Of a stretch of 20,711 nucleotides of DNA, positions 4,043-17,131 are shown piece by piece. The notes under the pieces were generated by a model. It saw only the letters and a list, made by a program, of their open reading frames with translations, did no database searches and was not told the origin of the DNA. The stretch is from the UHGV virus genome UHGV-0163620, one strand, 5' to 3'. Both the position numbers and the translations under genes were made by a program. The DNA is from a virus. Within the stretch, counting starts at the first letter, position 1; each line of letters opens with the position of its first letter.

Positions 4043-4058
4043 TGCGACCGTGGTCGCA
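4043..4058. other. sopC-like 16-bp inverted repeat TGCGACCGTGGTCGCA, copy 2 (extends to a 24-bp palindrome 4039-4062)
   Basis: Exact reverse complement of copy 1; lies about 21 bp upstream of the candidate late promoter -35. Confidence 0.6.
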
Positions 4059-4064
4059 CAGCTT

Positions 4065-4292
4065 TTAGAAAGTTGCCTGCTTATATTCATCGGTCAAAGA
4101 ATATCGACCAGATCCGCTACGCTTTGCAACCCCAAAACAGATCATCTGTTCGATGATAAATTCAACGGCAGCTTGACTCAAAAAACAGGCTTCGCTTAAC
4201 TCTTTCAGGGAAATGCGTGGGTATCCACGCATAACACATTCCACACTCAGGGCCGCTTCAGTCATATTTCCACGAATTTCATTAATATTCAT
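4065..4292 (-). CDS. small hypothetical protein, 75 aa, possible winged-helix DNA-binding fold
   Basis: ORF with GAGAGG Shine-Dalgarno before the ATG at 4292; helix-turn-helix-like segment; function not recognised. Confidence 0.5.
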   Translation of the reverse strand: MNINEIRGNMTEAALSVECVMRGYPRISLKELSEACFLSQAAVEFIIEQMICFGVAKRSGSGRYSLTDEYKQATF

Positions 4293-4692: not shown

Positions 4693-5004
4693 ATGTTTAA
4701 CGTGATAACCCACCCTGCAGCACTGGATGAACTGCTTGAACTACCAGATGATTTGCGAGGTCGCATGACCAGATTAATTGAGCGACTGGAGAAAGAAGGC
4801 AACAAACTGAAGATGCCCCATAGCCGTGTAATAGGTGGAGGGCTTTTTGAACTACGAGTAGGGGATAAAAACATCGCAAGAACGCTGTACGCCTACGCGA
4901 CTGGTAACGAAATTTATCTATTGCATGCATTTGTAAAAAAGACACAGAAAACACCGGTGAAGGCTATCGAAATCGCCAGAACTCGCCTGAAGGAGATGAA
5001 CTGA
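4693..5004 (+). CDS. RelE/ParE-superfamily toxin, HigB-2 / Gp49-like (DUF891)
   Basis: About 103 aa with family-typical fold signature; toxin-first order; GGAGG 7 nt upstream of the ATG at 4693; stop overlaps the next start (TGATG). Confidence 0.7.
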   Translation: MFNVITHPAALDELLELPDDLRGRMTRLIERLEKEGNKLKMPHSRVIGGGLFELRVGDKNIARTLYAYATGNEIYLLHAFVKKTQKTPVKAIEIARTRLKEMN

Positions 5005-5619: not shown

Positions 5620-5862
5620 TCAATGAATTAACTGCGTAAACTGCTGTGTGACCCGATACTTATGCTCTCTCCCTATGCCACGATCAACTTTCTCAAGAAG
5701 TCCAGTACGGACAGCAGAATCAAGCATCCTTTTAACAATTCTGCTATTTAACCCAACATCAAAAGAAAGCATCGAAGCGAAAACAAAACCATCACCACCA
5801 TCAGAAAAGCTCTTTTCGCTCCGTTTTCGTATCATTTCAAAAAGCAATGCCTTTTTATCCAT
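5620..5862 (-). CDS. hypothetical protein, 80 aa
   Basis: ORF with GGAGGG Shine-Dalgarno 4 nt upstream of the ATG at 5862; no family recognised. Confidence 0.5.
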   Translation of the reverse strand: MDKKALLFEMIRKRSEKSFSDGGDGFVFASMLSFDVGLNSRIVKRMLDSAVRTGLLEKVDRGIGREHKYRVTQQFTQLIH

Positions 5863-5871
5863 TTATCCCTC

Positions 5872-5885
5872 CGTGACCAGTCACG
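5872..5885. other. 14-bp palindrome CGTGACCAGTCACG (second dyad-site class), copy 1
   Basis: Identical 14-mer at 11927-11940 and its reverse complement at 16951-16964; abuts the Shine-Dalgarno of 5620..5862 and spans the stop of 5881..6207. Confidence 0.55.
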
Positions 5886-6207
5886 CTTTGAGCGCAAGTT
5901 TCAGCCTCGTGGTTGTAAGGTGGCATGACCCTTCGCCATCAAAAATGCATTCTGAAACAGGCATTTTTTGACCACATCGCGGGCAAGTAGTAGATAGCTG
6001 CTTCTGCAGCTCCTTATAGTTTTTCCTGATCAGCAAACCAATGACTTCGTTCTCCGAATATGGAACTCGCCCTGGTCTACGCAATACACAAATTTCCCCC
6101 AACATACGTAACTCGTCAGGTTCTAGAATCCAGTCCCGTCTTGATGTGCCTTCCTTCTTCAACCGTTCCCTGCGTCTCCTTTGCCGTTCTGCCGGTGTCA
6201 GCGCCAT
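5881..6207 (-). CDS. hypothetical protein, 108 aa, possible zinc-ribbon (CPRCG...C...C)
   Basis: ORF with GGAGG Shine-Dalgarno before the ATG at 6207; basic N-terminus and cysteine cluster. Confidence 0.5.
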   Translation of the reverse strand: MALTPAERQRRRRERLKKEGTSRRDWILEPDELRMLGEICVLRRPGRVPYSENEVIGLLIRKNYKELQKQLSTTCPRCGQKMPVSECIFDGEGSCHLTTTRLKLALKA

Positions 6208-6222
6208 AAATCCTCCTGAAAA

Positions 6223-6753
6223 TTACTTAACCCAATTAACTACACCGCCAGCGGCCACAACCGCCCTTTCACAGTCACGCTCATATCTCAAAGGTTGAAA
6301 TACACCATCAATAAAATATTTATCTCCACCAAACGCTGCAGGAAGTGAAACAGAAAACTGAATATGACCATCCGGAGTTACCGGAGAGTTGCCAGCCAGT
6401 CTACGCAACACAGCCTTAACGGCCTCAATACGGTCATCATCAACTTTTTCTACAATATTGGAATTTAAATACTTCGAAGCCTTGCTATGCCAATCGCTGG
6501 TTTTAGGGTCTTGTCCATCCATCAAACGCCAAGCTTCAGCGATTAACTCATAGCCAGTGACAGTGGCTTCCTGCGCATCACCAATAAGTCGTGTAATCTC
6601 TCTTTCAAGCCGACCGCCTAGCTCTGTTTTAGTGCAATGTTCTGACCAATCGCCAGCCTCAAGCAGCGCGAGAATGCTTAAAATATCGTCCAATAGAACG
6701 GTAGTATTATCGACTTCCTTCTGAAACTCACCGGCTACTGATTTATGCATCAT
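6223..6753 (-). CDS. hypothetical protein, 176 aa, with C-terminal PVTPDGHI motif
   Basis: ORF with tandem ATG start (MMH); shares a PVTPDG[HW]I motif with 6964..7698. Confidence 0.55.
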   Translation of the reverse strand: MMHKSVAGEFQKEVDNTTVLLDDILSILALLEAGDWSEHCTKTELGGRLEREITRLIGDAQEATVTGYELIAEAWRLMDGQDPKTSDWHSKASKYLNSNIVEKVDDDRIEAVKAVLRRLAGNSPVTPDGHIQFSVSLPAAFGGDKYFIDGVFQPLRYERDCERAVVAAGGVVNWVK

Positions 6754-7052
6754 TCGTCATCCTCATCTGAGTCATCCTCATCACAGGATGAGAGTAGTGG
6801 GTTAGTCATTCGCCCTACTTGAGTGGCGTAGCCACGCCGACAGAGATTGCGCAGCACACTGTATATTTCGAACATCTCGGTTCGTTCATCACCAACATCA
6901 AGCTCAGATGCTATAGCGTGGCATTCAGTCGCGAGAGCCGATATTTTCTGAAATAACTCTGCTTTATTCACTCTTCGACTCCTGCGGCGGTTCTGGTAGT
7001 GGCATCCAGTGAGTTGCTTGCTCAATACCATTACCCGGCTTAATCGTTGCAT
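6750..7052 (-). CDS. hypothetical acidic-tail protein, 100 aa (start uncertain)
   Basis: ORF whose stop overlaps the start of 6223..6753; its 5' part overlaps 6964..7698 in another frame, so one of the two is mis-started or spurious. Confidence 0.35.
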   Translation of the reverse strand: MQRLSRVMVLSKQLTGCHYQNRRRSRRVNKAELFQKISALATECHAIASELDVGDERTEMFEIYSVLRNLCRRGYATQVGRMTNPLLSSCDEDDSDEDDE

Positions 7053-7698
7053 CTCCGCGCCGAAAGGTGCTTCCGGTATAGCGTGCGGAGCATATTAGCG
7101 GTTCAACCAGAGAGCTATCGAAATTCACCGAAATAAGCACGTTCTGGCCCTTTTCAGGCATTCGCTCACTACAGCTTATCCAACCATCCGGAGTTACCGG
7201 ATAGTTGCCAGCCTCATACGCGACCCTTATCCAGTGCATAAGCATTTCAGTACTTACACATCCACAATCAACATCAATTTTGTCATGCTGCTGTTCCAGC
7301 CATTGCTCAAAAGTTAACTTGTAAGTTTGGCTTACAGGTTTGGCTTCCAGTTCTGCTATGTGATTTTTGGCTGATTCCAACTCAATCGACAATTTTTCCA
7401 ACTGCTCTTTATGATTTTTATATTCCTGATATGCGTGCCAGGACTGACCTTTGCGCACACTATCAGTGATATCAGTAATCTGTTCTGGTGTTAGCGTGGT
7501 CAGTGGCTGTGATGGGAAAATAAGCACTTTCCCGGAATCCCAATCAAAACCAGTGTGAATTGACTGAACCTCAACTGAAGGTGTTGAACCAATGCTGCCA
7601 GGCGAATGAACAACGATTGTTACATCCATATCGCGACGATGGCTGTGGTTGTTGGACAAAATACGATTCACCAACTCAGAAAATTTAGAAAATTTCAT
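6964..7698 (-). CDS. hypothetical protein with DUF551-like C-terminal domain
   Basis: 244 aa; C-terminal NYPVTPDGWISCSERMPEKGQNVLISV...THWMPLPEPP resembles the prophage DUF551 pattern (from memory). Confidence 0.55.
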   Translation of the reverse strand: MKFSKFSELVNRILSNNHSHRRDMDVTIVVHSPGSIGSTPSVEVQSIHTGFDWDSGKVLIFPSQPLTTLTPEQITDITDSVRKGQSWHAYQEYKNHKEQLEKLSIELESAKNHIAELEAKPVSQTYKLTFEQWLEQQHDKIDVDCGCVSTEMLMHWIRVAYEAGNYPVTPDGWISCSERMPEKGQNVLISVNFDSSLVEPLICSARYTGSTFRRGDATIKPGNGIEQATHWMPLPEPPQESKSE

Positions 7699-8063
7699 GC
7701 TGATTCACCTTTCTTTGCTCTCTCCTGTCGGAACATCACTATCATCAGGTCGCCTTTTGTCGCTATCTTGGCTGTTGTGCCTGGCTCAATGCGGCTAAGT
7801 TCAAATGCGTCATAGAACGCCTCCAACGCTTTCTGGCGTTTTTCCTGTTTGCGGCGCTTTCCCCACTGCTTTAGAAAAACAGAGGCCGCCCACTTCCCCG
7901 CACTGAACATGATGTAAAACCAACCGAGAAGTGCCAGACCGGTATTTAGGGCCGTATCGATCGTTATCGTGGTGTCGATATTCACTACGCCACCTCCTGA
8001 AAATTTCCCTGATAAAACGCCAACACACGCTGCATAACTTCGCTCTTCCGACAATCGTGACAA
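7695..8063 (-). CDS. hypothetical protein, 122 aa, one hydrophobic segment (start uncertain)
   Basis: ORF; its 5' end overlaps 7985..8404 in another frame, so the true start may be an internal Met (around 7910). Confidence 0.35.
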   Translation of the reverse strand: MSRLSEERSYAACVGVLSGKFSGGGVVNIDTTITIDTALNTGLALLGWFYIMFSAGKWAASVFLKQWGKRRKQEKRQKALEAFYDAFELSRIEPGTTAKIATKGDLMIVMFRQERAKKGESA

Positions 8064-8404
8064 ATCATGTTCAAGCGCCTGTCGTAACGACGTATTTCTC
8101 CGTCAGGTAATGACCAGATAAGGTCTGGATCAACCACTACCGATTTCTTCGGCTTTACTCTTGATAGTTTTTTACGGGCGTTTTGCCAGTCCTTGCGTGC
8201 TTGTGCAGACAGAAATATCCCGGAGCCAGAGATATACAAATCACCACTGGCAGCAAGCTCTCTTGATAAACGACTAACAGCACACCGGCTAATACCAGTT
8301 TCATCCGCAAGTTGCCTAACCGTTCCTCGTCCATTCAGGCGCACGAGTTCCACAATTTGTTTATTCAGTTCTTCCCTCTGTTCTGGTGTAAAAGCCTTTG
8401 CCAT
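7985..8404 (-). CDS. putative HTH DNA-binding protein, 139 aa
   Basis: Helix-turn-helix-like segment RQLADETGISRCAVSRL; C-terminal cysteines; family not recognised. Confidence 0.5.
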   Translation of the reverse strand: MAKAFTPEQREELNKQIVELVRLNGRGTVRQLADETGISRCAVSRLSRELAASGDLYISGSGIFLSAQARKDWQNARKKLSRVKPKKSVVVDPDLIWSLPDGEIRRYDRRLNMICHDCRKSEVMQRVLAFYQGNFQEVA

Positions 8405-9003
8405 TACGATTCTCCTTGCCCTTTTACAAGACGGGAGAAAATTGCGGATACATATTTAGCCTGATGAATAGCATCAGCCAGGGCATTGTGTCGTTCGCCA
8501 TCAAATGGCATATCTTTTTTAGGATTAAAACCAATAAACTGACCAAGATTAACGATTGTTCGAACATCCTGATCATTAAAATATTCCCACGGACAGGCTA
8601 AGCCAACGCGCTCATAAGCACCGCGTAAAATTACATTATCGAACGTTGCTCCATTTCCCCATACTTTCAATTTTTTTAAATTACATGCATGGCAAGTAAT
8701 AAAGTGTGATAATTCAAAAAGTGCATCCTTAATATCAAGGGCATCATTAGTACAAATAGCGGCTCTGGCTTCCTTGCTCTGTTTCAACCACCATAAAATG
8801 GTATCACCATCGGCGATACCACCATTCAACATCGAGCTTCTGAGATTCACTGGCACATAAAAAGTAGGACCTAATTCCTCACTTTCTGGAGAAAAAAACA
8901 CTGCCCCGATAGAAACAATTGGAGCACATGTGTTAGTACCCATTGTTTCAAGGTCAATCATTACATCAGACCGTTTCCTGTCGTAAATAATCTGATTAGT
9001 CAC
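8404..9003 (-). CDS. DnaQ-like 3'-5' exonuclease (DEDDh)
   Basis: Exo I motif MIDLETMGT, Exo II WGNGATFD, Exo III HNALADA; ORF-track start is a GTG, true start may be the Met in MIDLETMG. Confidence 0.65.
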   Translation of the reverse strand: MTNQIIYDRKRSDVMIDLETMGTNTCAPIVSIGAVFFSPESEELGPTFYVPVNLRSSMLNGGIADGDTILWWLKQSKEARAAICTNDALDIKDALFELSHFITCHACNLKKLKVWGNGATFDNVILRGAYERVGLACPWEYFNDQDVRTIVNLGQFIGFNPKKDMPFDGERHNALADAIHQAKYVSAIFSRLVKGQGES

Positions 9004-9026
9004 GAATAATTCTCCTCAACGTTTAT

Positions 9027-9230
9027 CTATACCCAAATTTTCTGTTGATATGTTCTGGATGGTTTTGGCGTTCTTTCTGATTCAGGTAAATGAACATAAA
9101 CGCAATATCCATCACCTAAAAAATCAGAACGAACAACCAGAACTTTCTTACCACGCCGCCGATAAGTATCTGAAAGACGCTCTGCTTCATCATGCGTCAT
9201 CGGCCCCTGCTTAAATGGCGTTATTTTCAT
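9027..9230 (-). CDS. small hypothetical protein, 67 aa
   Basis: ATG at 9230; ORF-track start at 9254 is a GTG lying inside the palindrome at 9238-9253. Confidence 0.4.
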   Translation of the reverse strand: MKITPFKQGPMTHDEAERLSDTYRRRGKKVLVVRSDFLGDGYCVYVHLPESERTPKPSRTYQQKIWV

Positions 9231-9531
9231 TTTCTTGTGCGACCACGGTCGCACCCTCTCTGATTTCCAAGTAACGCTTAATCCAAAGATTTTCTATATG
9301 CTTATTACCTGGCTGATTTGATAAATACCAATCGGCAATTACAGACTGCTTATTACTATCTGGTCGTGTCCTGTAACCACAAGTTGGACACCAGATAACA
9401 TATTCATTTCTTACCCCCGAATACCTTAATTCTGGCTTCGACGGTTTCCTGAACATAACTTGTTTACAAAGACAGAATGGCACTTCCTGCCCGATGGCGT
9501 TTGATGATTTCACTGCGCTTCTCCGCCGCAT
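9211..9531 (-). CDS. zinc-ribbon protein, possibly Lar-like restriction alleviation family (tentative)
   Basis: CxC ... CxxC pattern (VPFCLCK ... WCPTCGYRTRP ... ADWYLSN) loosely resembling Lar/RalR small proteins as recalled from memory. Confidence 0.4.
   Translation of the reverse strand: MRRRSAVKSSNAIGQEVPFCLCKQVMFRKPSKPELRYSGVRNEYVIWCPTCGYRTRPDSNKQSVIADWYLSNQPGNKHIENLWIKRYLEIREGATVVAQENENNAI
9238..9253. other. sopC-like 16-bp inverted repeat TGCGACCACGGTCGCA, copy 3
   Basis: Identical to copy 1; 8 bp upstream of the ATG at 9230 and inside the 3' end of ORF 9211..9531. Confidence 0.6.
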
Positions 9532-10174
9532 TTAATAATGCAGTTCGATTTAAGCTCAGACATCGCGACTTAATTAAAAGCCAGCGTTCTTTATAATCTT
9601 GTCTCCAGCTATCAATAGATATATTCAGTAGAAAACTCAGATGCCTGTCCTGTTCTCTCTCATCAACTGCCTCAGCACACGTAAGTTCTGATTTAACCTG
9701 TTGTGCCGCGTAATAAATCAATTTCCGCATGGCTTTTTTCGTGGAGGCCTTCATTTTTTTAAAGCCGCCCCCCGAATGAGCAACCAGAAAATCAAGCCAT
9801 AACCACTGACAAACAATCACATCATTGTTGTAATCAGGCTTGCATCCGTAGCAATAATAAAGCCAGGCTGATTCCTCGTTATTCAACTGACCAATAGCCC
9901 TGCGCCAGCTGGCGCTCTGAAAATCAATATCAGTGAGCAACATTGATGATTGTTTAAATGTTTTCCCCTGGTGGAATCTAACCGGCTCAGCAGGAACGGA
10001 CACTTCGTATGAGTTATCATCCCCCACACTGATTGACCGGACTGGTTTATTGTTAAACCGTCCTGATCTACCGAGACGCATCTGCTCAAGCTGGACCTCC
10101 AGAATGCCACGCTGGCGATAATGAACATCAGCCAATGCCGTAGAGACGCAGCTGCGTATATACTCAAGCTCCAC
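9464..10174 (-). CDS. hypothetical protein, 236 aa, in the position of a Q-like late regulator (function unproven)
   Basis: Long ORF immediately downstream of the cro-like gene; N15 immB is recalled as cB-cro-Q; no antiterminator motif recognised; GTG start overlaps the cro-like stop. Confidence 0.45.
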   Translation of the reverse strand: MELEYIRSCVSTALADVHYRQRGILEVQLEQMRLGRSGRFNNKPVRSISVGDDNSYEVSVPAEPVRFHQGKTFKQSSMLLTDIDFQSASWRRAIGQLNNEESAWLYYCYGCKPDYNNDVIVCQWLWLDFLVAHSGGGFKKMKASTKKAMRKLIYYAAQQVKSELTCAEAVDEREQDRHLSFLLNISIDSWRQDYKERWLLIKSRCLSLNRTALLNAAEKRSEIIKRHRAGSAILSL

Positions 10175-10385
10175 GCTTACGACTCTCCTTAATCGACTGC
10201 TTTACCCGCCGAGTTGTAAAGTCACTCTTCAGCTTATAAGCAGTACGAACTTCAATATCGCTTTGCCGCAATGAAGGAATCTCTCCAGCGGTTAACCATT
10301 GGTAAACAGCTCCGGGTGTTACACCTACCCCTGCCGCTGCTTTTTCTACACTGCCAAAATGGCGAATAAGTTCTTCTGGTTTCAT
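10164..10385 (-). CDS. cro: Cro-like HTH regulator (YdaS/Cro family)
   Basis: 73 aa from the ATG at 10385; HTH segment GVGVTPGAVYQWL; divergent from the repressor gene across a region with two dyad operators. Confidence 0.7.
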   Translation of the reverse strand: MKPEELIRHFGSVEKAAAGVGVTPGAVYQWLTAGEIPSLRQSDIEVRTAYKLKSDFTTRRVKQSIKESRKRGA

Positions 10386-10412
10386 GTTGTTATTATAAAC
10401 AATAAACAACAA

Positions 10413-10454
10413 TTAAAGCCAGCTATAATAAATAAATTTTATAGCCAGCTATAA
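10413..10454. promoter_or_regulatory. immunity-switch operators: two 16-bp dyad sites (TTAAAGCCAGCTATAA at 10413-10428; TTATAGCCAGCTATAA at 10439-10454)
   Basis: Two 7-2-7 inverted repeats with centres 26 bp apart in the AT-rich region between divergent cro-like and repressor genes. Confidence 0.55.
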
Positions 10455-10476
10455 GAAGATCATTTATGATTACAGT

Positions 10477-11073
10477 ATGAAAACACGAGGCGAACGACTG
10501 AAAGCACGCCGTTTAGAGATGAAGCTGACGTTGCGAGAAGTTGCTGAGGCTGTCGATATCTCTATAGCAGGCGTCCAAAACTTAGAACGTGGCGACGTAA
10601 TGCCGTCACTGGAGATAGGTATTGCCCTGGCTAAGTGCTTACGCAAGCCAGTGCATTGGGTGCTATATGGGACAGAATATGACCCTGATCGCATTCCTGT
10701 TATTGGCACAACTGAAAGTGGGCCGGATGAAGAGTGGAAGCCGGGACAGGTTCCAAATACTGAGCGATTCCTGCCATTCATCAGCCAGCGCAATACTGTG
10801 TATGCGTTAACTATCAGCAATCTTACGCAGGGAAACTATCAGCCAGGCGATTTTCTCCTGGTCGATTCTGCGCTGGAACTGGTCCCCGGCGAGGATGTTC
10901 TGGTTCGTGATACTGCAGGAAATATCACTATCCAGCGCCTGGCCCGTTTTGATGATGAAAATTACTATCTGGATGGAACAAACTCACAACGCGCCATCTT
11001 CAGGAAAAGCGATCTTGAATTTGTTCACCAAATAGTCGGAACGATCAAATCATTCATGGTTGAGGGTAGATGA
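10477..11073 (+). CDS. cB: prophage repressor, CI/CB-like (N-terminal XRE HTH, C-terminal S24-peptidase-like domain)
   Basis: N-terminal HTH MKLTLREVAEAVDISIAGVQNLERG; C-terminal beta-rich domain alignable by eye to lambda CI but without an obvious GxSM serine motif or catalytic lysine. Confidence 0.75.
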   Translation: MKTRGERLKARRLEMKLTLREVAEAVDISIAGVQNLERGDVMPSLEIGIALAKCLRKPVHWVLYGTEYDPDRIPVIGTTESGPDEEWKPGQVPNTERFLPFISQRNTVYALTISNLTQGNYQPGDFLLVDSALELVPGEDVLVRDTAGNITIQRLARFDDENYYLDGTNSQRAIFRKSDLEFVHQIVGTIKSFMVEGR

Positions 11074-11174
11074 CTTAATACGGGGTTTATTGTTTGCTGT
11101 AAATCTGGTTTAATGCAGGGCATATGTTCTGTGGGTTGACTCAGGTTACAGCAGCAGAAAAAAGACGAAAAAAA

Positions 11175-11203
11175 ACCCGAGTCGGCAAACTCGGGTCCTT
11201 TTC
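11175..11203. terminator. bidirectional intrinsic terminator between repressor gene and repA
   Basis: 8-bp stem ACCCGAGT/ACTCGGGT with 6-nt loop; plus strand followed by CCTTTTC, minus strand followed by a run of 8 U. Confidence 0.55.
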
Positions 11204-11318
11204 AGGAAGCAGCCACAACAACGCGACAGATTCCGTCAATTCAAGATGCGTTTATTGTGGCTGCTCCTGCGGATTTTTTCAACCCGAAAAAACATAATTC
11301 GCATGGAATGGCTAAAAA

Positions 11319-14300
11319 ATGACATTAAACGATTTCTATGCGGATCGCTTTGGCAGCGATCCGTTCTCGCTAATTGAAGCAGCACGGGATGAACTAACCG
11401 AGCTGGCACAGATGGCTGGTATCAACTGGCCTGCCTGTTCCGACAACATCCAACTCAACCCTCGCGGGGGGGTTGAGCGTTACTCTTCATACAATAAAAC
11501 ATCTCCAGAAGCTCTCGAAAAGAGCCTGAAAGGACGCGTAGAAATTTACTCCAGGCTGGAACACAGCAAAGGGATTGATTACCCGTTCATTAACTTCGTC
11601 CATAAAGGCAGCGATGCTGGCTCATGGAGCGGTTTCTCCTTCCTGTTTTCTGAATATCGCCGTGAGCAACAACGGAATAATGCGACCGTGGTCGCACAAC
11701 CGGAAGAAGAACGGGAAAGAATAGAACGTCAGGCCGAAGCACGTCGTCGCCGTGAAGAACAAAAACGAATTAATGACCTGAAAAACAACCAAATGGACCA
11801 TGAACGTTTGCTGGGATGGCTGGCATTCCACAGCGCGTGGGAACATGCTCCGGCTGAAGACGGCTCATGGCCATATGCGATTAAAAAAGGTATTCGTGAC
11901 GTTTTTAGTTCATGTGATGTGCGTCGCGTGACCAGTCACGACAGTGCGAAATGGAGCCGGGGGTCAACCACATATATGGCTATCCCTCTGGCTCACCTGG
12001 ACGGTCGTTATGATGGTCGTATTGTGGGTTGGCAGCGAATCGACAAACAAGGTGGGAAATACCAGACCAGCGCAGTAACCAGCGGCGATTTCGTCGGTGC
12101 CTGCTTTGTTATCGGTGAGCTGAAAGGGGCGCAAAACATCGCTGTTACAGAAGGTTTTGCTACTGGTGCATCCATCTGGCTTGCCACGAAAAAAGATAAA
12201 CGCTTTGACGCTGTGGTTGTCGCTGTATCCGCTAACAACATGGTTCATGTTGTGGAACAACTGGTAAACATGTACCCGGCGGCAAAAATCACCTGCGCAC
12301 TGGATAATGACCGGAAATCTGCCACAGAAGGAAAAGGGAATACCGGCCTGCGGACTGGCTATGAAATCTTATCGAAATTCAACGATGTCCGCTGCGTCTA
12401 CCCAACTTTTGAAGACGATCCGCAAATGGAGTGCAGTGACTTCAACGACCTGCACAAACTACGTGGACTTCGTGAAACAGCACGTCAACTATTTGCAACA
12501 GCAAACCGCCTGAAAACCGGCACTGATTTGCTATCTCTGACGCTCAACCGCCTGAAGACAATTAAGCGGGATAACCGTCGTACTTTTGCCAAAGAGCTGC
12601 TGAGAGCGGTGGATATTGGCATGCTAACCTGTCCGGTTCCTAACAGTCCGTCAGATTTATTTAACATGTTCTGCATCGTTCTGCGTGAAATGGGACTGGA
12701 AAATATCTATCGTGCTACGGTAAAAGACCACATTGCCCGTCGCCTGAATAAAAAGTGCCGTATTGCCCAGGCTCCGCGCTCTTTCAGCGAACGCATAACT
12801 GATCCCAATAAACGACCTCAACATATCACCTATAAGCGTTTTGAAACTTCGGTAATGACCGATGATGTCCTGAAGTACGTGCAATCACTACAGGGGATAG
12901 TCATCGTCCGTGCTGGTATGGGTTCCGGCAAATCTACTGGATTGTTACGACCGTTAATGCATAGCTCAGAACGTGGTATCTCTGTTGCTCACCGTGTCTC
13001 CCTTATTGGTGGCCTGTGGGAAATGATGACAGAAGGAAAAGGTGTAAAAGCCGATATCCTGCACTATCAGGATCCTGGCTATCAGGAAATGGCTCCATAC
13101 GCCAGTAAACTGACCATCTGCATAAACTCGATTGTTAAAAACTGCTGGCAACCGTTGATGCGCCAGCACGACTATTTTGGCTTTGACGAGGCCACACAAG
13201 GGCTACGTGCCGTTCTTTCCGGTCGGGCTATGGAAAACCCGGTGGCTGTATTCAATACGCTAATTGACGCGCTGGCCAGAACGGAACAACACCCAATCAT
13301 GGTGGATGCTGATGCGAACGATCTGCTGGTTGACCTGGCTGAACTGGCTATGAAACGCCGTGAAGAACTAGGTTTACCGGCATGGCTGCAGATCCACGTA
13401 ATTGAATTACCTGTTGATGTTCGCAACCGCGAAACAGGTGAGCCAATCCGGGTTTTTTATACAGAAAAAGATCGCATCATGACCGAGGTGGTGAAAGCTG
13501 TATCGGATGGCGAAAAAATTATGTTGGCCACCGACAGCTCCACCTTTGCAGAAGATGTGACCGCCACCCTGAGAATGCATTTCCCTGGCAAGAAATTTCT
13601 GTGCGTAAACCAGAAAAGCAAACAGGATGAAGAAGTCGATGCCTTTACCAGCCAGCCAAAAGTAATGGTGATGAAATACGATGGACTGATCTACAGCCCG
13701 TCGATTTCCTCCGGGGTGTCATTTGAGAAAAAACATTTTGACCGTCATTTCGGCATGTTCTGCGGTGAAGTTGTGCCCAGCGACGCAGTGCAAATGCTAC
13801 GCCGCGACCGTACAGCAAAAGAATTTATTATTGGCTTTGATAAAGCCCGTGCAAAACGCGAGACTGATCCGCAAAAAATAGAACGTGCATTCGCCCAGGC
13901 ATTACTTGCTACCGCAGGCATGAACGGTGAACTGACGGATGTCATTTTCGATGGCGACCGTATATCAATGGGGGTAGCCAATACCGACTTTACCAGGATG
14001 AAAATTAAAGCAGCCGCAATTGAAGCGTCTGCGCGTAACGACTACGCCAGCAACATGATCTGCATCATGCACAGCGACGGTTATAAGGTATCACCATTAG
14101 CTACCGATTATGCCGCGAACGATTTTGGTAAAGAGCTGCGCAAAGAAGCGCGGGATATTGTGTGGGAACAGACGCTGGATCTGCACCTCAATACAGAGAC
14201 ACCAGAAGAATCAGAGCGTGAAGAACTACTAAAAAAACGTGCGCTAACGCTTGAAGAACAGGCAAAACTGGTCCGCTGGGATATTGAGAACGAACTGAAA

Positions 14301-15302
14301 TTACCGGTTGAAGAAGGCACACTGAAATTCTATTTCGATGGCGCTCGAGACAAAATTCGCCGTTATGAAACGATGCTGCTTGATGAAGTCACAGCCCGTC
14401 GTTATGACCGTGAAGAAGCGGCTATCAATTTTACATACGCATATCGCCAGACCGGACAGTGGCAATATTTTGTGGTGACCGCGATGACACGCGAGCAGGC
14501 TGATGATGTATTCAAAGCGAAATTTCCGGGAATAATCGACTACAAGGTAAAAGCCACCCCAGCTGTTGAGGTCGGCATGCGCGGATTCTATGCGCTTAAA
14601 TCAGCAACTCTCCGGCAGTATTTTATCGACTGCGGTATCGACCCTGAAACTATGACTGGCGAAGCGACGCAGGAACGCCTTAAGTTCGCTCGAGATAATC
14701 TCATGACAGCAGAACGCCGTGACCTGTTGAATAACGTTCTGCGCATTGGTGGTTTTATGACACCAAAAGGGAAGCCTAAAGTGCCGGAAGCACTGTTTAA
14801 AAACATCTGCGACTCTCTCGGCCTAAAAACAGGAAAACGTCGCGGCAGAGATGGCGATAAGCGCCCGACATTGCGTTTTGTTGAGCCTGAGTCTGTAGCA
14901 TTTATGCTTGATATTCTTGCGCAACGTCAGGAGGACGGTATGACGTTGAAAGCTCGCAAGGCAGAAAAATCAACGACCGAAGTGGATCGCGATTTGTCAT
15001 TAAATATATATATGAATGGTGAAACGAGATCCACAAACACGGAGGAACAGGATCCCCCTCGTTCAGCTATATCACAGGCTTTGGCTGTATTGCCGGTGGC
15101 TGTTCCTGAGTCCTGGGCGATGAGTGCTCTGCCATCAGCCGAACTGGAATCTATCAGGGGGTGGTCAGTTGACAGCATCGCATACACGTTTGCAGCCCTT
15201 TATATGACTGAGTTTATGGATTTGCTGTCCGGTCATGAGATTAAGTTGCTGAAGGCTTTTATAGGCCCACGACATGCCAGCGATGAGTTTTGTGTAGTTT
15301 AG
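11319..15302 (+). CDS. repA: RepA-like multidomain replication protein (primase + helicase/origin-binding), 1327 aa
   Basis: Toprim-like segment (VTEGFATGAS ... ALDND); Walker A VRAGMGSGKST and Walker B FGFDEAT; size and architecture match N15 RepA as recalled. Confidence 0.85.
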   Translation: MTLNDFYADRFGSDPFSLIEAARDELTELAQMAGINWPACSDNIQLNPRGGVERYSSYNKTSPEALEKSLKGRVEIYSRLEHSKGIDYPFINFVHKGSDAGSWSGFSFLFSEYRREQQRNNATVVAQPEEERERIERQAEARRRREEQKRINDLKNNQMDHERLLGWLAFHSAWEHAPAEDGSWPYAIKKGIRDVFSSCDVRRVTSHDSAKWSRGSTTYMAIPLAHLDGRYDGRIVGWQRIDKQGGKYQTSAVTSGDFVGACFVIGELKGAQNIAVTEGFATGASIWLATKKDKRFDAVVVAVSANNMVHVVEQLVNMYPAAKITCALDNDRKSATEGKGNTGLRTGYEILSKFNDVRCVYPTFEDDPQMECSDFNDLHKLRGLRETARQLFATANRLKTGTDLLSLTLNRLKTIKRDNRRTFAKELLRAVDIGMLTCPVPNSPSDLFNMFCIVLREMGLENIYRATVKDHIARRLNKKCRIAQAPRSFSERITDPNKRPQHITYKRFETSVMTDDVLKYVQSLQGIVIVRAGMGSGKSTGLLRPLMHSSERGISVAHRVSLIGGLWEMMTEGKGVKADILHYQDPGYQEMAPYASKLTICINSIVKNCWQPLMRQHDYFGFDEATQGLRAVLSGRAMENPVAVFNTLIDALARTEQHPIMVDADANDLLVDLAELAMKRREELGLPAWLQIHVIELPVDVRNRETGEPIRVFYTEKDRIMTEVVKAVSDGEKIMLATDSSTFAEDVTATLRMHFPGKKFLCVNQKSKQDEEVDAFTSQPKVMVMKYDGLIYSPSISSGVSFEKKHFDRHFGMFCGEVVPSDAVQMLRRDRTAKEFIIGFDKARAKRETDPQKIERAFAQALLATAGMNGELTDVIFDGDRISMGVANTDFTRMKIKAAAIEASARNDYASNMICIMHSDGYKVSPLATDYAANDFGKELRKEARDIVWEQTLDLHLNTETPEESEREELLKKRALTLEEQAKLVRWDIENELKLPVEEGTLKFYFDGARDKIRRYETMLLDEVTARRYDREEAAINFTYAYRQTGQWQYFVVTAMTREQADDVFKAKFPGIIDYKVKATPAVEVGMRGFYALKSATLRQYFIDCGIDPETMTGEATQERLKFARDNLMTAERRDLLNNVLRIGGFMTPKGKPKVPEALFKNICDSLGLKTGKRRGRDGDKRPTLRFVEPESVAFMLDILAQRQEDGMTLKARKAEKSTTEVDRDLSLNIYMNGETRSTNTEEQDPPRSAISQALAVLPVAVPESWAMSALPSAELESIRGWSVDSIAYTFAALYMTEFMDLLSGHEIKLLKAFIGPRHASDEFCVV
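11681..11696. other. sopC-like 16-bp inverted repeat TGCGACCGTGGTCGCA, copy 4, inside repA coding sequence
   Basis: Exact 16-mer encoding residues A-T-V-V-A of RepA (codons 122-126). Confidence 0.6.
11927..11940. other. 14-bp palindrome CGTGACCAGTCACG, copy 2, inside repA coding sequence
   Basis: Exact copy of the 5872-5885 site; encodes R-V-T-S-H-D of RepA; 246 bp downstream of sopC-like copy 4. Confidence 0.55.
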
Positions 15303-15319
15303 AGGGTAGAAGCGTGGGA

Positions 15320-15586
15320 ATGATGCAAGAGTGCCTCGTTTTGATTGAAGGGTATGATCCGTATGTTGTTAACGTCAGCAGAATGGATACTGGCTATAGC
15401 GATTACAAAACTGGTCGAGAACTGCCGTTCACCATCATCAGGATGAATGGCTTTGGCGATGATGATGCTGTTTATTGCTGTATTGCCAGCGATAAAAACA
15501 TGGAAGACCGGACAGATGAAGCCCGTATGCTATTGAGGAAATATAAGGTAAAGCCGTTATCAGAGAATAACGCTGAGAGGGGTTAA
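15320..15586 (+). CDS. hypothetical protein, about 89 aa (start ambiguous)
   Basis: ORF immediately after repA; ORF-track start at 15290 overlaps the repA end, so the tandem ATGs at 15320/15323 are preferred. Confidence 0.45.
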   Translation: MMQECLVLIEGYDPYVVNVSRMDTGYSDYKTGRELPFTIIRMNGFGDDDAVYCCIASDKNMEDRTDEARMLLRKYKVKPLSENNAERG

Positions 15587-15588
15587 AA

Positions 15589-15984
15589 ATGGCAGTTCAA
15601 TCATACAAATACGAATCCCCTTTGGATAAGGGATACATTCGTATCAAGTTAAGTCGTTCTCAGCATAAGGCTATTTTTAAGGTAAGGAAAATTCGCATAT
15701 TGGATGCGTATGCGTATTACTACAACGGTGAAAATGTTGTTGTTGAACACTTTCTTGCACGATGGTTTGTAGCTCTGATTTTTGTCCCTCTCCTGTTAAT
15801 TGGTACTTTTGTGGATGGTTTTCCTAGTACATGGCGGGAGATAAAGAAAGGCTTATTCCCGCGTAAGTACGGCAGATTTTCGCAAGATAGCTGGCGAGTT
15901 ATACCTGGTAAACATTCTGTAGATGAGCAACCGATTGTTGATTACTGGTTGAAGCGTATGGCTGATGCTAAAAAAGTTGATTGA
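15589..15984 (+). CDS. hypothetical single-pass membrane protein, 131 aa
   Basis: Good Shine-Dalgarno (GAGAGGGG); hydrophobic helix WFVALIFVPLLLIGTFV; translationally adjacent to the previous ORF. Confidence 0.55.
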   Translation: MAVQSYKYESPLDKGYIRIKLSRSQHKAIFKVRKIRILDAYAYYYNGENVVVEHFLARWFVALIFVPLLLIGTFVDGFPSTWREIKKGLFPRKYGRFSQDSWRVIPGKHSVDEQPIVDYWLKRMADAKKVD

Positions 15985-16073
15985 ATAGTGATGACTGTTC
16001 AAGTTAAACCGTTCTCGGCATATTTTATTTAATGGAATAACATATTATTAATCAAATAGGTTAAGTTAATATT

Positions 16074-16886
16074 ATGCGTAACAAAAAAACAACAGCTTTA
16101 TTACTCTCTATCTTGTTATTATCTGGATGCACTTATCAATATGATAATAAGGCATCAACGGACGTTGAGTATAAATTCGAAAAAGAAAAAAGAGTACCTA
16201 TCAACTCTGTTGGTGATTTTAGCAGCAAAATACTCACAGGTAAGGAATTTAATAGAATTATTGCATCAAAGATAGATGATGGTTCATGGCGTGGATATGT
16301 CGTTCACTCATTAACATACGCGCCATACAACAACGTTTTAACATCTCAAGGTTTGTCTATCCCTAGAAGTATCACATACTCAGGAACATATCTTAACCGT
16401 GATTTTGCTGAGAATAGCGGTAGTGATAGCGTGATAACATCTCGAGATATGTCTGGATGGTATGGTTTTCATGTCGATTCCTCTGAAATAACAAAGCATG
16501 GAAGCTATGTTGGTGCTAATGCTTTTGGAATATCTGCTGATGTAGAAGTGTTAAATACTTTAGGTGCCGAAATTATCTTTGGTAGTACACAAATAAATGA
16601 AGGGAACCCTGAAACAATATGGGCAGATATTGATATAAAAGGACAAATGCCAAAAGATGTTAATGTAAAAGACCTTAGAATTGAATATTTAGCAAAGATA
16701 AATGGGTTAAGCAGCAATCATATTGATATAACATCACCTACTATTTTTAACCCGTCAGATATGAGCCATAAAACTCAGGTTTTTATGGGTGAGTTATTAG
16801 CCGCGCGCCTAATAAATATTAAAACGGGAGAAATTTATCCAGTACAGCTAGAGTGGGTGTTCCGTTCGCGTGAGGCTTTCTTATAA
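16074..16886 (+). CDS. lipoprotein, 270 aa, in a compositionally AT-rich insert
   Basis: Signal peptide with lipobox LLSGC; coding sequence visibly AT-rich relative to neighbours; no family recognised. Confidence 0.7.
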   Translation: MRNKKTTALLLSILLLSGCTYQYDNKASTDVEYKFEKEKRVPINSVGDFSSKILTGKEFNRIIASKIDDGSWRGYVVHSLTYAPYNNVLTSQGLSIPRSITYSGTYLNRDFAENSGSDSVITSRDMSGWYGFHVDSSEITKHGSYVGANAFGISADVEVLNTLGAEIIFGSTQINEGNPETIWADIDIKGQMPKDVNVKDLRIEYLAKINGLSSNHIDITSPTIFNPSDMSHKTQVFMGELLAARLINIKTGEIYPVQLEWVFRSREAFL

Positions 16887-16947
16887 CGGAACAATAACAT
16901 TGTTCATGTTCTGATCGTTTGTTCAAGCAAACTATAAAAACACCTGT

Positions 16948-16967
16948 CCCCGTGACTGGTCACGGGG
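16948..16967. other. 20-bp perfect palindrome CCCCGTGACTGGTCACGGGG containing copy 3 of the 14-bp dyad site (16951-16964)
   Basis: Reverse-complement orientation of the 5872 and 11927 sites; lies between the lipoprotein stop and the immA-like promoter, about 20 bp upstream of its -35. Confidence 0.55.
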
Positions 16968-16987
16968 TAAAATGTCTTTGCAAATTA

Positions 16988-17017
16988 TTGACGTGTGCGT
17001 CGTTTTGGAGGTAAAGT
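16988..17017 (+). promoter_or_regulatory. candidate promoter of the immA-like antirepressor operon
   Basis: TTGACG (16988-16993), 18-nt spacer, TAAAGT (17012-17017); judged by eye. Confidence 0.35.
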
Positions 17018-17078
17018 CACCTCGCTGCGGTAAATCCCGCAGTCGGGACTTCGCAATCCTGGCAAAACGAAGCGCACA

Positions 17079-17100
17079 ACACGCGCCAGCGTGTTTTTTT
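17079..17100 (+). terminator. intrinsic terminator/attenuator in the immA-like leader
   Basis: 6-bp stem ACACGC/GCGTGT with 4-nt loop followed by seven T (17094-17100); about 77 nt downstream of the candidate start site. Confidence 0.55.
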
Positions 17101-17131
17101 GTGTGTACAGACCTGCGCATATCCGAATTAT

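Follow-up and report, generated by a model that had tools for sequence, protein, structure and literature searches.

The right arm of the N15-like linear phage-plasmids carries a family of short palindromes, and the question raised by this arm in the virus genome UHGV-0163620 is which protein recognizes them. The window (the whole stretch of DNA analysed, 20,711 nucleotides or 20.7 kb) is the right arm of such an element, of the genus Ravinvirus. It is 97-98% identical to the Escherichia phages YDC107_1 and PhiR46_1, and its nucleotide identity to N15 and phiKO2 is about 75% over repA and the adjoining regions. The palindromes are a real, strongly conserved and previously unassigned feature, for which a candidate protein is now proposed: they are probably recognition sites, of the form GTGAC-N2-GTCAC, for the phage's own homologue of the N15 protein gp46, and the recognition of this word by a gp46 dimer is likely and well supported. 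The evidence computed in the present work consists of the conservation of the sites, selection acting on them at the level of the DNA, their co-inheritance with the gp46 gene, and the ribbon-helix-helix (RHH)-like fold of the modelled protein.

The sequence CGTGACCAGTCACG occurs in exact copies at 5872-5885 (+), 11927-11940 (+) and 16951-16964 (-), referred to here as sites B1, B2 and B3. It is composed of two 6-bp arms, CGTGAC and GTCACG, which enclose an asymmetric 2-bp spacer, CA/TG. A preliminary description of this DNA had reported an exact 14-bp dyad in three copies; the three exact copies stand, while the asymmetric spacer makes the dyad an imperfect one. The same description had judged three copies to be beyond chance, and the observed match count was indeed reached by none of 100 dinucleotide shuffles. 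The sites, and the genes that contain or adjoin B1 and B2, are the following.

5872..5885, no strand: site B1, CGTGAC-CA-GTCACG, which overlaps the TGA stop codon of the gp46-family gene and lies directly 5' of the ribosome-binding site of the gp47-like gene.
11927..11940, no strand: site B2, at repA codons ~204-207, encoding RVTSH.
16951..16964, no strand: site B3, which ends 23 bp upstream of the -35 element of the anti-immunity (Pa-like) promoter and has its centre near -66.
5881..6207, minus strand: gp46-family gene, 108 amino acids, the putative binder of the sites.
5620..5862, minus strand: gp47-like open reading frame (ORF), 80 amino acids, whose ribosome-binding site adjoins B1; a possible regulated target.
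11319..15302, plus strand: repA, 1327 amino acids, which contains B2.

The locations given in the preliminary description agree with these measurements. One site had been said to abut a ribosome-binding site, and the sequence GGAGGG at 5866-5871 (minus strand), which is followed by the ATG of the ORF at 5620-5862(-), adjoins B1, which itself contains the TGA of the ORF at 5881-6207(-). A second had been placed inside repA near a sopC-like copy, and B2, about 600 bp into the gene, begins 245 bp from the beginning of the sopC-like site at 11682. The third had been put about 20 bp upstream of the -35 of the antirepressor-operon promoter, a distance measured here as 23 bp. Neither an AT-rich dip nor an iteron cluster was found near the repA site, and a link between the sites and a replication origin was rejected for this reason. 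A near-match with two mismatches, CGTTACCAGTCGCG, is present at 4896-4909, inside the RelE/ParE-like toxin gene; it is kept in the closest relatives, and is probably due to chance, since it is absent from N15 and one of its arms is broken.

A search for the motif in related phage-plasmids, which had been suggested as a check on the palindrome family, found the three sites at orthologous positions in N15, in phiKO2 and in about 50 N15-like elements of IMG/VR. In N15 the three exact copies are at 28549, 33236 and 39268, with none elsewhere in the 46-kb genome, and phiKO2 and PhiR46_1 have the same three sites. Among the site-bearing N15-like elements, which comprise the roughly 50 IMG/VR contigs and six Enterobacter contigs, the only variable positions are the outermost flank base and the spacer (CA, CC or CG). 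Through alignment of RepA, more distant relatives were found. One of them (L117, 63% RepA identity) has GTGAC-AT-GTCAC at the same three positions, and another (L126, 61%) keeps the arms and the three positions with spacers TT/AA. Because these distant relatives preserve arms and positions with other spacers, the functional word is taken to be GTGAC-N2-GTCAC, which is the only part invariant across relatives (5-bp arms fixed, 2-bp spacer variable). The gp46/gp47 junction bears the site in N15 (39268), phiKO2, the ~50 IMG/VR loci, L117 and L126. Neither the N15 nor the phiKO2 record has an annotation at the sites, and the motif strings appear in no sequence-searchable paper, an earlier mention in the older N15 and phiKO2 papers being possible.

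The copy inside repA provides an opportunity to separate constraint on the DNA from constraint on the encoded protein. In a comparison of 14 diverse repA genes, which differ by up to 30% in nucleotide sequence, the 17-nt run CGCGTGACCAGTCACGA at the repA site is the longest invariant stretch in 4 kb. Third codon positions are invariant in 13.9% of the codons of this alignment, and B2 has five consecutive invariant third positions; only 4 of the 1268 five-codon windows are fully invariant at their third positions. In the codon that spans the spacer, the residue varies between S, C and R while nGT is retained. Selection at this site thus acts on the DNA rather than on the protein. In PY54, RepA has a four-residue insertion exactly at the place of B2. 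A separate relative (L119, 60% RepA identity) has two GTGAC-N2-GTCAC sites within repA, 32 bp apart (6753 and 6785) and in different reading frames.

The distribution of the sites among phages also bears on which protein reads them. Twenty PY54-like loci, with RepA identity of at most 51%, have neither the sites nor a gp46 homologue, and the same loci have homologues of gp47, gp50 and gp51. The preliminary description had named three helix-turn-helix (HTH) candidates for the binder, encoded at 7985-8404, 4065-4292 and 5620-5862, and none of them can be retained, as none co-occurs with the site outside the telomere phages. The winged-HTH protein gp51 (4065-4292) and gp47 (5620-5862) were rejected because their homologues are present in PY54-like phages that have no site, and the DUF977/Ren-like protein (7985-8404) was rejected as a necessary binder because of its lack of co-occurrence with the site outside the telomere phages. 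The more general claim, that an additional DNA-binding factor with no assigned protein is involved, fares better: the sites do form a separate, non-random family, and the protein encoded at 5881-6207(-) may now be put forward as the candidate.

Evidence that connects the site to this gene comes from elements other than the telomere phages, in which profile searches detected gp46 relatives of 31-58% identity. In four integrated prophages (a Pantoea prophage, a Pectobacterium lambdoid, an Enterobacter podovirus-like and a Phytobacter P2-like prophage) GTGAC-AT-GTCAC lies on the stop codon of the gp46 homologue or within 10 bp of it, with further copies elsewhere in the prophage; the gp46 homologues in these independent backgrounds are 31-40% identical. 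For a broader survey, one genome per species was scanned with peptide patterns from the middle of the protein, which yielded 62 loci in 62 species, mostly Enterobacterales with one Pseudomonas. Since the patterns lie in mid-protein, the sample was not selected on the site. The 62 loci contain 83 GTGAC-NN-GTCAC sites in 1.12 Mb, compared to about 1.1 expected, an enrichment of about 80-fold, and the spacer is 2 bp in 83 of the 88 matches to GTGAC-N(0-4)-GTCAC. A site falls between -40 and +60 of the gene end in 40 of the loci, and at least one lies within 10 kb of the gene in 58. Across these non-telomere loci, gp46 is the sole gene of the window in common (69/70).

The genes that flank the prophage homologues vary in kind (among them genes for gpA-like replication proteins and C5 methylases, probable small-terminase genes and AlpA-like genes); a conserved partner gene, whether methyltransferase, terminase or gpA, was rejected on this ground, and gene and site accordingly behave as one self-contained unit. 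In one prophage type only (L145, L151-L154, L157 and L162), the gp46-like gene is immediately upstream of the terminase genes, with one site after it (10336 and 13511 being the sites in L145) and a second about 28 bp past the large-terminase ORF, so that the probable terS-terL pair is bracketed by sites. Pfam supports the terminase call in L145 and L146 only; in the other loci it is based on the sizes of the ORFs and on a homologous ORF of 190-236 amino acids downstream.

A gene that resembles a stand-alone moron with variable neighbours, and that has the site at its 3' boundary in many genomes, might instead be a small mobile cassette whose insertion or target scar, or recombination boundary, is the palindrome, with the additional copies as empty targets and without any part in regulation. 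This explanation is highly improbable. No nuclease or recombinase motif is recognizable in gp46, the copy in the repA reading frame and the one near Pa have kept their positions across deep divergence, and in the plasmid homologues the site is found upstream of and inside the gene rather than at its end.

These plasmid homologues form a subfamily whose gene directly follows stbABC in the backbones of IncN plasmids, where it is called 'OrfD', and of IncW-like plasmids. The OrfD gene is found in more than 1100 PLSDB plasmids, 913 of them conjugative. The sites of this subfamily have the form CGTGAC-N1-GTCACG, with a 1-bp spacer in all six that were seen, at the following positions.

Locus L213: 4920 and 5022.
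Locus L214: 2905.
Locus L215: 3022.
Locus L147: 9934 and 10079.

They are located 24-70 bp before the start codon and, within the gene, at +75, where the intragenic site encodes the predicted DNA-reading strand (S-V-T-V-T-L), and no consensus promoter was found at them. The proteins of the subfamily have a one-residue deletion before the predicted strand. The geometry of the site thus co-varies with the protein subfamily, because the 1-bp spacer accompanies the one-residue deletion. Overall, gene and site are carried by telomere phage-plasmids, by prophages of the lambdoid, P2-like and podovirus-like types, and by more than 1000 conjugative plasmids of IncN/IncW type.

Is gp46 the kind of protein that could recognize such a site? 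The family consists of about 220 clusters at 50% identity, and every database name given to it is 'hypothetical', 'Gp46' or 'OrfD' (the N15 protein is AAC19085.1). It falls in PHROG 536 ('transcriptional regulator'), and has no family, RHH or other, in Pfam or NCBIfam. In the family alignment, Arg residues of a basic N-terminal helix are invariant, as are four Cys, and the core reads RRPG..PY...E. An AlphaFold model of the single chain, based on 27 sequences, has a pLDDT of 80 and consists of a helix (5-19), an extended segment (20-29), two helices (30-42 and 52-71), a zinc-ribbon-like knuckle and a terminal helix. The model of gp46 resembles the RHH DNA binders, with a putative RHH core, and adds a C-terminal four-Cys zinc ribbon. 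A Foldseek comparison with viral models returned nothing useful.

A short palindromic operator would be a property shared with the RHH repressors (P22 Arc and Mnt, MetJ, CopG, and the antitoxins ParD, MazE and TacA), to which gp46 has no detectable sequence homology and from which it differs by its additional Arg-rich N-terminal helix and four-Cys zinc ribbon. The phage site, in contrast to the operators of these repressors, occupies the stop codon of its own gene and the interior of other genes instead of the promoter of its gene, and unlike the antitoxins gp46 has no toxin partner. The relaxosome RHH proteins (TraM, TraY and TrwA) act on arrays at oriT, whereas most gp46 members are in phages that have no transfer functions and the sites are single palindromes. 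ArdK of the IncN and IncW plasmids is described as an HTH factor, and it was rejected as a homologue since gp46 has no HTH match.

The arms of the site are also those of a host sequence, and it must be asked whether a nucleoid or division protein of the Enterobacterales host, MatP or SlmA, binds the palindromes, with gp46 a mere neighbour or modulator. Through such a protein the phage-plasmid would be linked to the positioning of Ter and the divisome, or to nucleoid occlusion. The MatP site, matS, is the 13-bp GTGAC-RNY-GTCAC, whose arms are the same as those found here and whose spacer is 3 bp, compared to 2 bp here and 1 bp in the plasmids; nearly all of the surveyed sites have a 2-bp spacer, and virtually none has that of matS, and the window has no true matS, GTGACNNNGTCAC, even at one mismatch. 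The SlmA site, SBS, is GTGAGTACTCAC, a 12-bp palindrome with 5-bp arms and a 2-bp spacer that shares GTGAx..xTCAC with the present sites. SlmA needs G, T, A and G at positions 1, 2, 4 and 5, mutation of which significantly impairs its binding, and both half-sites here have C at position 5. SlmA is moreover a TetR-family HTH protein, and none of that kind is encoded in the window. Any resemblance between MatP, a protein of E. coli, and gp46, which is encoded by mobile elements, is at the level of the RHH fold only. The gp46 model has no four-helix bundle or coiled coil, and an hhalign comparison of the gp46 family with a manually entered E. coli MatP sequence gave a probability of 0.09%.

The phylogenetic distribution is similarly difficult to reconcile with a host protein. 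The PY54-like phages of Yersinia, a host that has both MatP and SlmA, are without sites, and one locus of the survey (L211) is in Pseudomonas lundensis, a member of a genus that is not known to have MatP, which weighs against MatP as the binder. A host factor would also fail to explain why so many backbones have the site at the stop codon of one particular mobile gene, or why the spacer is 1 bp in the plasmid homologues. Binding by a host protein is consequently regarded as quite improbable.

A related possibility is that gp46 and its sites resemble the MatP system in mode of action. GTGAC-N(1-2)-GTCAC together with gp46/OrfD would then be a widespread and unrecognized mobile-element system with an architectural or bridging role like that of MatP, and gp46 would not be an ordinary repressor. 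Such a protein might pair a few dispersed sites, or might meet the host MukBEF, MatP or divisome via the half-sites identical to those of matS, and so control the element's replication, segregation or lysis-lysogeny timing. This is unlikely, though a small share of belief is reserved for it.

The window contains a second palindrome family, with which the B sites must not be confused. Sites of the form GCGACC-NN-GGTCGC (extended, TGCGACC..GGTCGCA) are present at 1034-1047, 4044-4057, 9239-9252 and 11682-11695, and these match the dispersed centromere sites of N15 and the 'putative plasmid partitioning site' features of phiKO2. The two families share the replicon, a 6-2-6 dyad architecture and a dispersed location in regulatory and replication genes, with one copy of each in repA; the B sites are few, occupy the same half of the genome as the SopB sites and include one at 245 bp from a sopC-like site. 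A cis site beside the gene of its binder is also typical of partition modules. The B sites might on these grounds be a second set of centromere-like anchors, either as auxiliary SopB sites or with gp46 as an RHH centromere binder of the ParG/omega/ParR type, and their role would lie in plasmid positioning or site pairing rather than in transcription.

That the B sites are distinct from the sopC-like sites had already been claimed, and it follows from the word itself (CGTGAC rather than GCGACC) and from the independent evolution of the two families in L117 and L126. In these relatives the B arms stay as they are, but the centromere word differs (GGGACC.. and GTGGCC.., respectively), a difference that implies that SopB has switched specificity; SopB is therefore not the reader of the B sites, which do not have the form TG(C/G)GACC-NN-GGTC(G/C)CA that co-varies with the resident SopB. 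Each B site is furthermore a single 12-bp palindrome and not an array, and the module, unlike the sopC-like sites, is found in integrated prophages that have no sop genes and no adjacent ParA and that need no partition. A centromere role is accordingly very improbable. The sites are thus neither matS nor SBS nor sopC, since the defining features of each were tested and are absent.

The palindrome lies 1-2 nt from the Shine-Dalgarno sequence in the N15-like phages, in one prophage locus (L144) and in the IncN plasmids, and this proximity, together with the modelled zinc ribbon, is what would be expected if the sites were RNA elements, hairpins beside ribosome-binding sites or within mRNAs that control translation or stability and are perhaps bound by the zinc ribbon in the manner of Mu Com. 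A spacer of 2 nt (or 1 nt) cannot form a loop, however, and the best hairpin, of 5 bp and about -5 kcal/mol, does not occlude the Shine-Dalgarno sequence. In repA the minimum-energy fold makes no use of the palindrome, and insignificant z-scores were obtained for two of the three copies. Among elements whose proteins are 31-80% identical the arms do not vary and no compensatory change is seen in them, the three sites do not all have one orientation relative to transcription, and the Pa-proximal site is upstream of its promoter. The sites show neither a stable covarying hairpin nor the hairpin and U-run of an intrinsic terminator. The lack of compensatory changes in the arms and the weak or unused RNA folds therefore fit base-specific recognition by a protein and not RNA structure, and an RNA element is regarded as highly improbable.

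Several observations weigh against recognition of the sites by gp46, or limit what may be concluded about its function. PDB sequence searches revealed no similarity of gp46 to any solved RHH protein. In 22 of the 62 prophage loci the gene end is without a site, and in four there is none within 10 kb. The neighbours of the gene are not conserved, so that its context gives no clue to a pathway. Co-occurrence cannot prove that gp46 itself, and not a partner or a host factor, contacts the DNA. A classical operator function is unlikely at B1 and B2 because there is no promoter-like sequence near either, and B3, centred near -66, overlaps neither the -35/-10 elements nor the +1 position of its promoter. 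The Pa promoter, finally, reportedly works on plasmids without gp46, and if this is so, the site is dispensable for basal Pa activity.

A functional relationship between B3 and this promoter is nevertheless suggested by the organization of the region, in which two features follow the site.

16988..17017, plus strand: Pa-like sigma-70 promoter, TTGACG-18-TAAAGT, which drives the CA-RNA / icd / antA / antB operon.
17078..17101, plus strand: intrinsic terminator, which ends the short leader (CA-like) RNA of the Pa-like promoter.

The terminator follows the promoter at about 60 nt, and its position matches that of a stem-loop annotated at 28413-28435 in N15; the layout of promoter, short leader and terminator matches the Pa/CA-RNA arrangement of N15. 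A distance of 24-25 nt between the GTCAC arm and the -35 element is kept in N15, phiKO2, L126 and others, and a block around the site (16911-16975) is conserved in most N15-like elements, its upstream part being TGATC(A/G)-N-AAGCAAACTATAAAAAC and the sequence directly downstream GGGGTAAAAT. Conservation of the -35 spacing and of the flanking GGGGTAAAAT block suggests that B3 is functionally coupled to the anti-immunity promoter. The block also contains TAAAAT, which resembles a -10 element for which the palindrome would be the spacer, and, on the opposite strand, TATAGT, which is again -10-like and has the palindrome near a -35 position; judging from these sequences, it is possible that the Pa-proximal site controls extra promoters. 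A LexA box (CTGT-N8-CTGG) overlapping B3 was rejected as a poor match by eye.

If gp46 does recognize the sites, a mechanism can be outlined, for which we infer binding, its stoichiometry and the direction of regulation. The gp46 dimer would insert a two-stranded beta-ribbon into the major groove over the centre of the dyad, and the Arg-rich N-terminal helices would reach out to the invariant GTGAC arms. Made from the rightward early operon, the protein would occupy three control points. At about -66 of Pa it may modulate the expression of CA-RNA, icd and ant; at the repA site its role could be that of a roadblock or a loop anchor; and at its own 3' end, beside the gp47 ribosome-binding site, it might affect the distal genes of the operon or the gp47 translation start region. 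Plasmid replication and anti-repressor control would in this way be coupled to the early part of the lytic programme; in the simplest picture, gp46 may be a factor of early lytic growth with contacts at repA and at the anti-repressor locus. Gene and site would form a portable module, with at least one site at the stop codon or immediately behind it and others elsewhere on the element, and the embedding of the site at the stop would keep the two linked during mosaic recombination.

The identification would be of consequence because N15 is a model linear phage-plasmid, parts of which are used in cloning vectors, and its circuits for immunity, anti-immunity, replication and partition are regarded as mapped; yet an element with three sites that touches repA and Pa is unannotated. 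If the sites are those of gp46, the protein would be a new and testable regulator that links the early lytic operon, plasmid replication and anti-repressor control. The same protein-site pair is found near the stbABC genes of IncN plasmids that carry carbapenemase genes and in many Enterobacterales prophages, and because the pair is so widespread, a single binding experiment would annotate a whole family of 'hypothetical proteins'. The identity of the half-sites with those of matS also raises the question of whether there is cross-talk with the Ter-organizing system of the host, or a deliberate avoidance of it.

The gene content of the window follows that of N15: lysis genes, methylase, gp51/gp50, a RelE/HigA-type toxin-antitoxin pair, gp47 and gp46, followed by a variable block, Q, cro, cB, repA, small ORFs, the anti-immunity operon and telN. 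Several ORFs have no counterpart in N15, phiKO2 or PY54, namely one of 270 amino acids just upstream of B3 (16074-16886) and those of the block 6223-8404, which includes the DUF977/Ren-like protein; they are accessory genes inserted beside conserved control regions. In the GenBank record of YDC107_1 (CP025712.1, L001), the arm from repA to telN is repeated in inverted orientation after the protelomerase gene (36.9-46.7 kb, compared to 27-36.5 kb), and the record has no sop/left-arm end; the inverted repeat looks like a fold-back assembly across the hairpin telomere.

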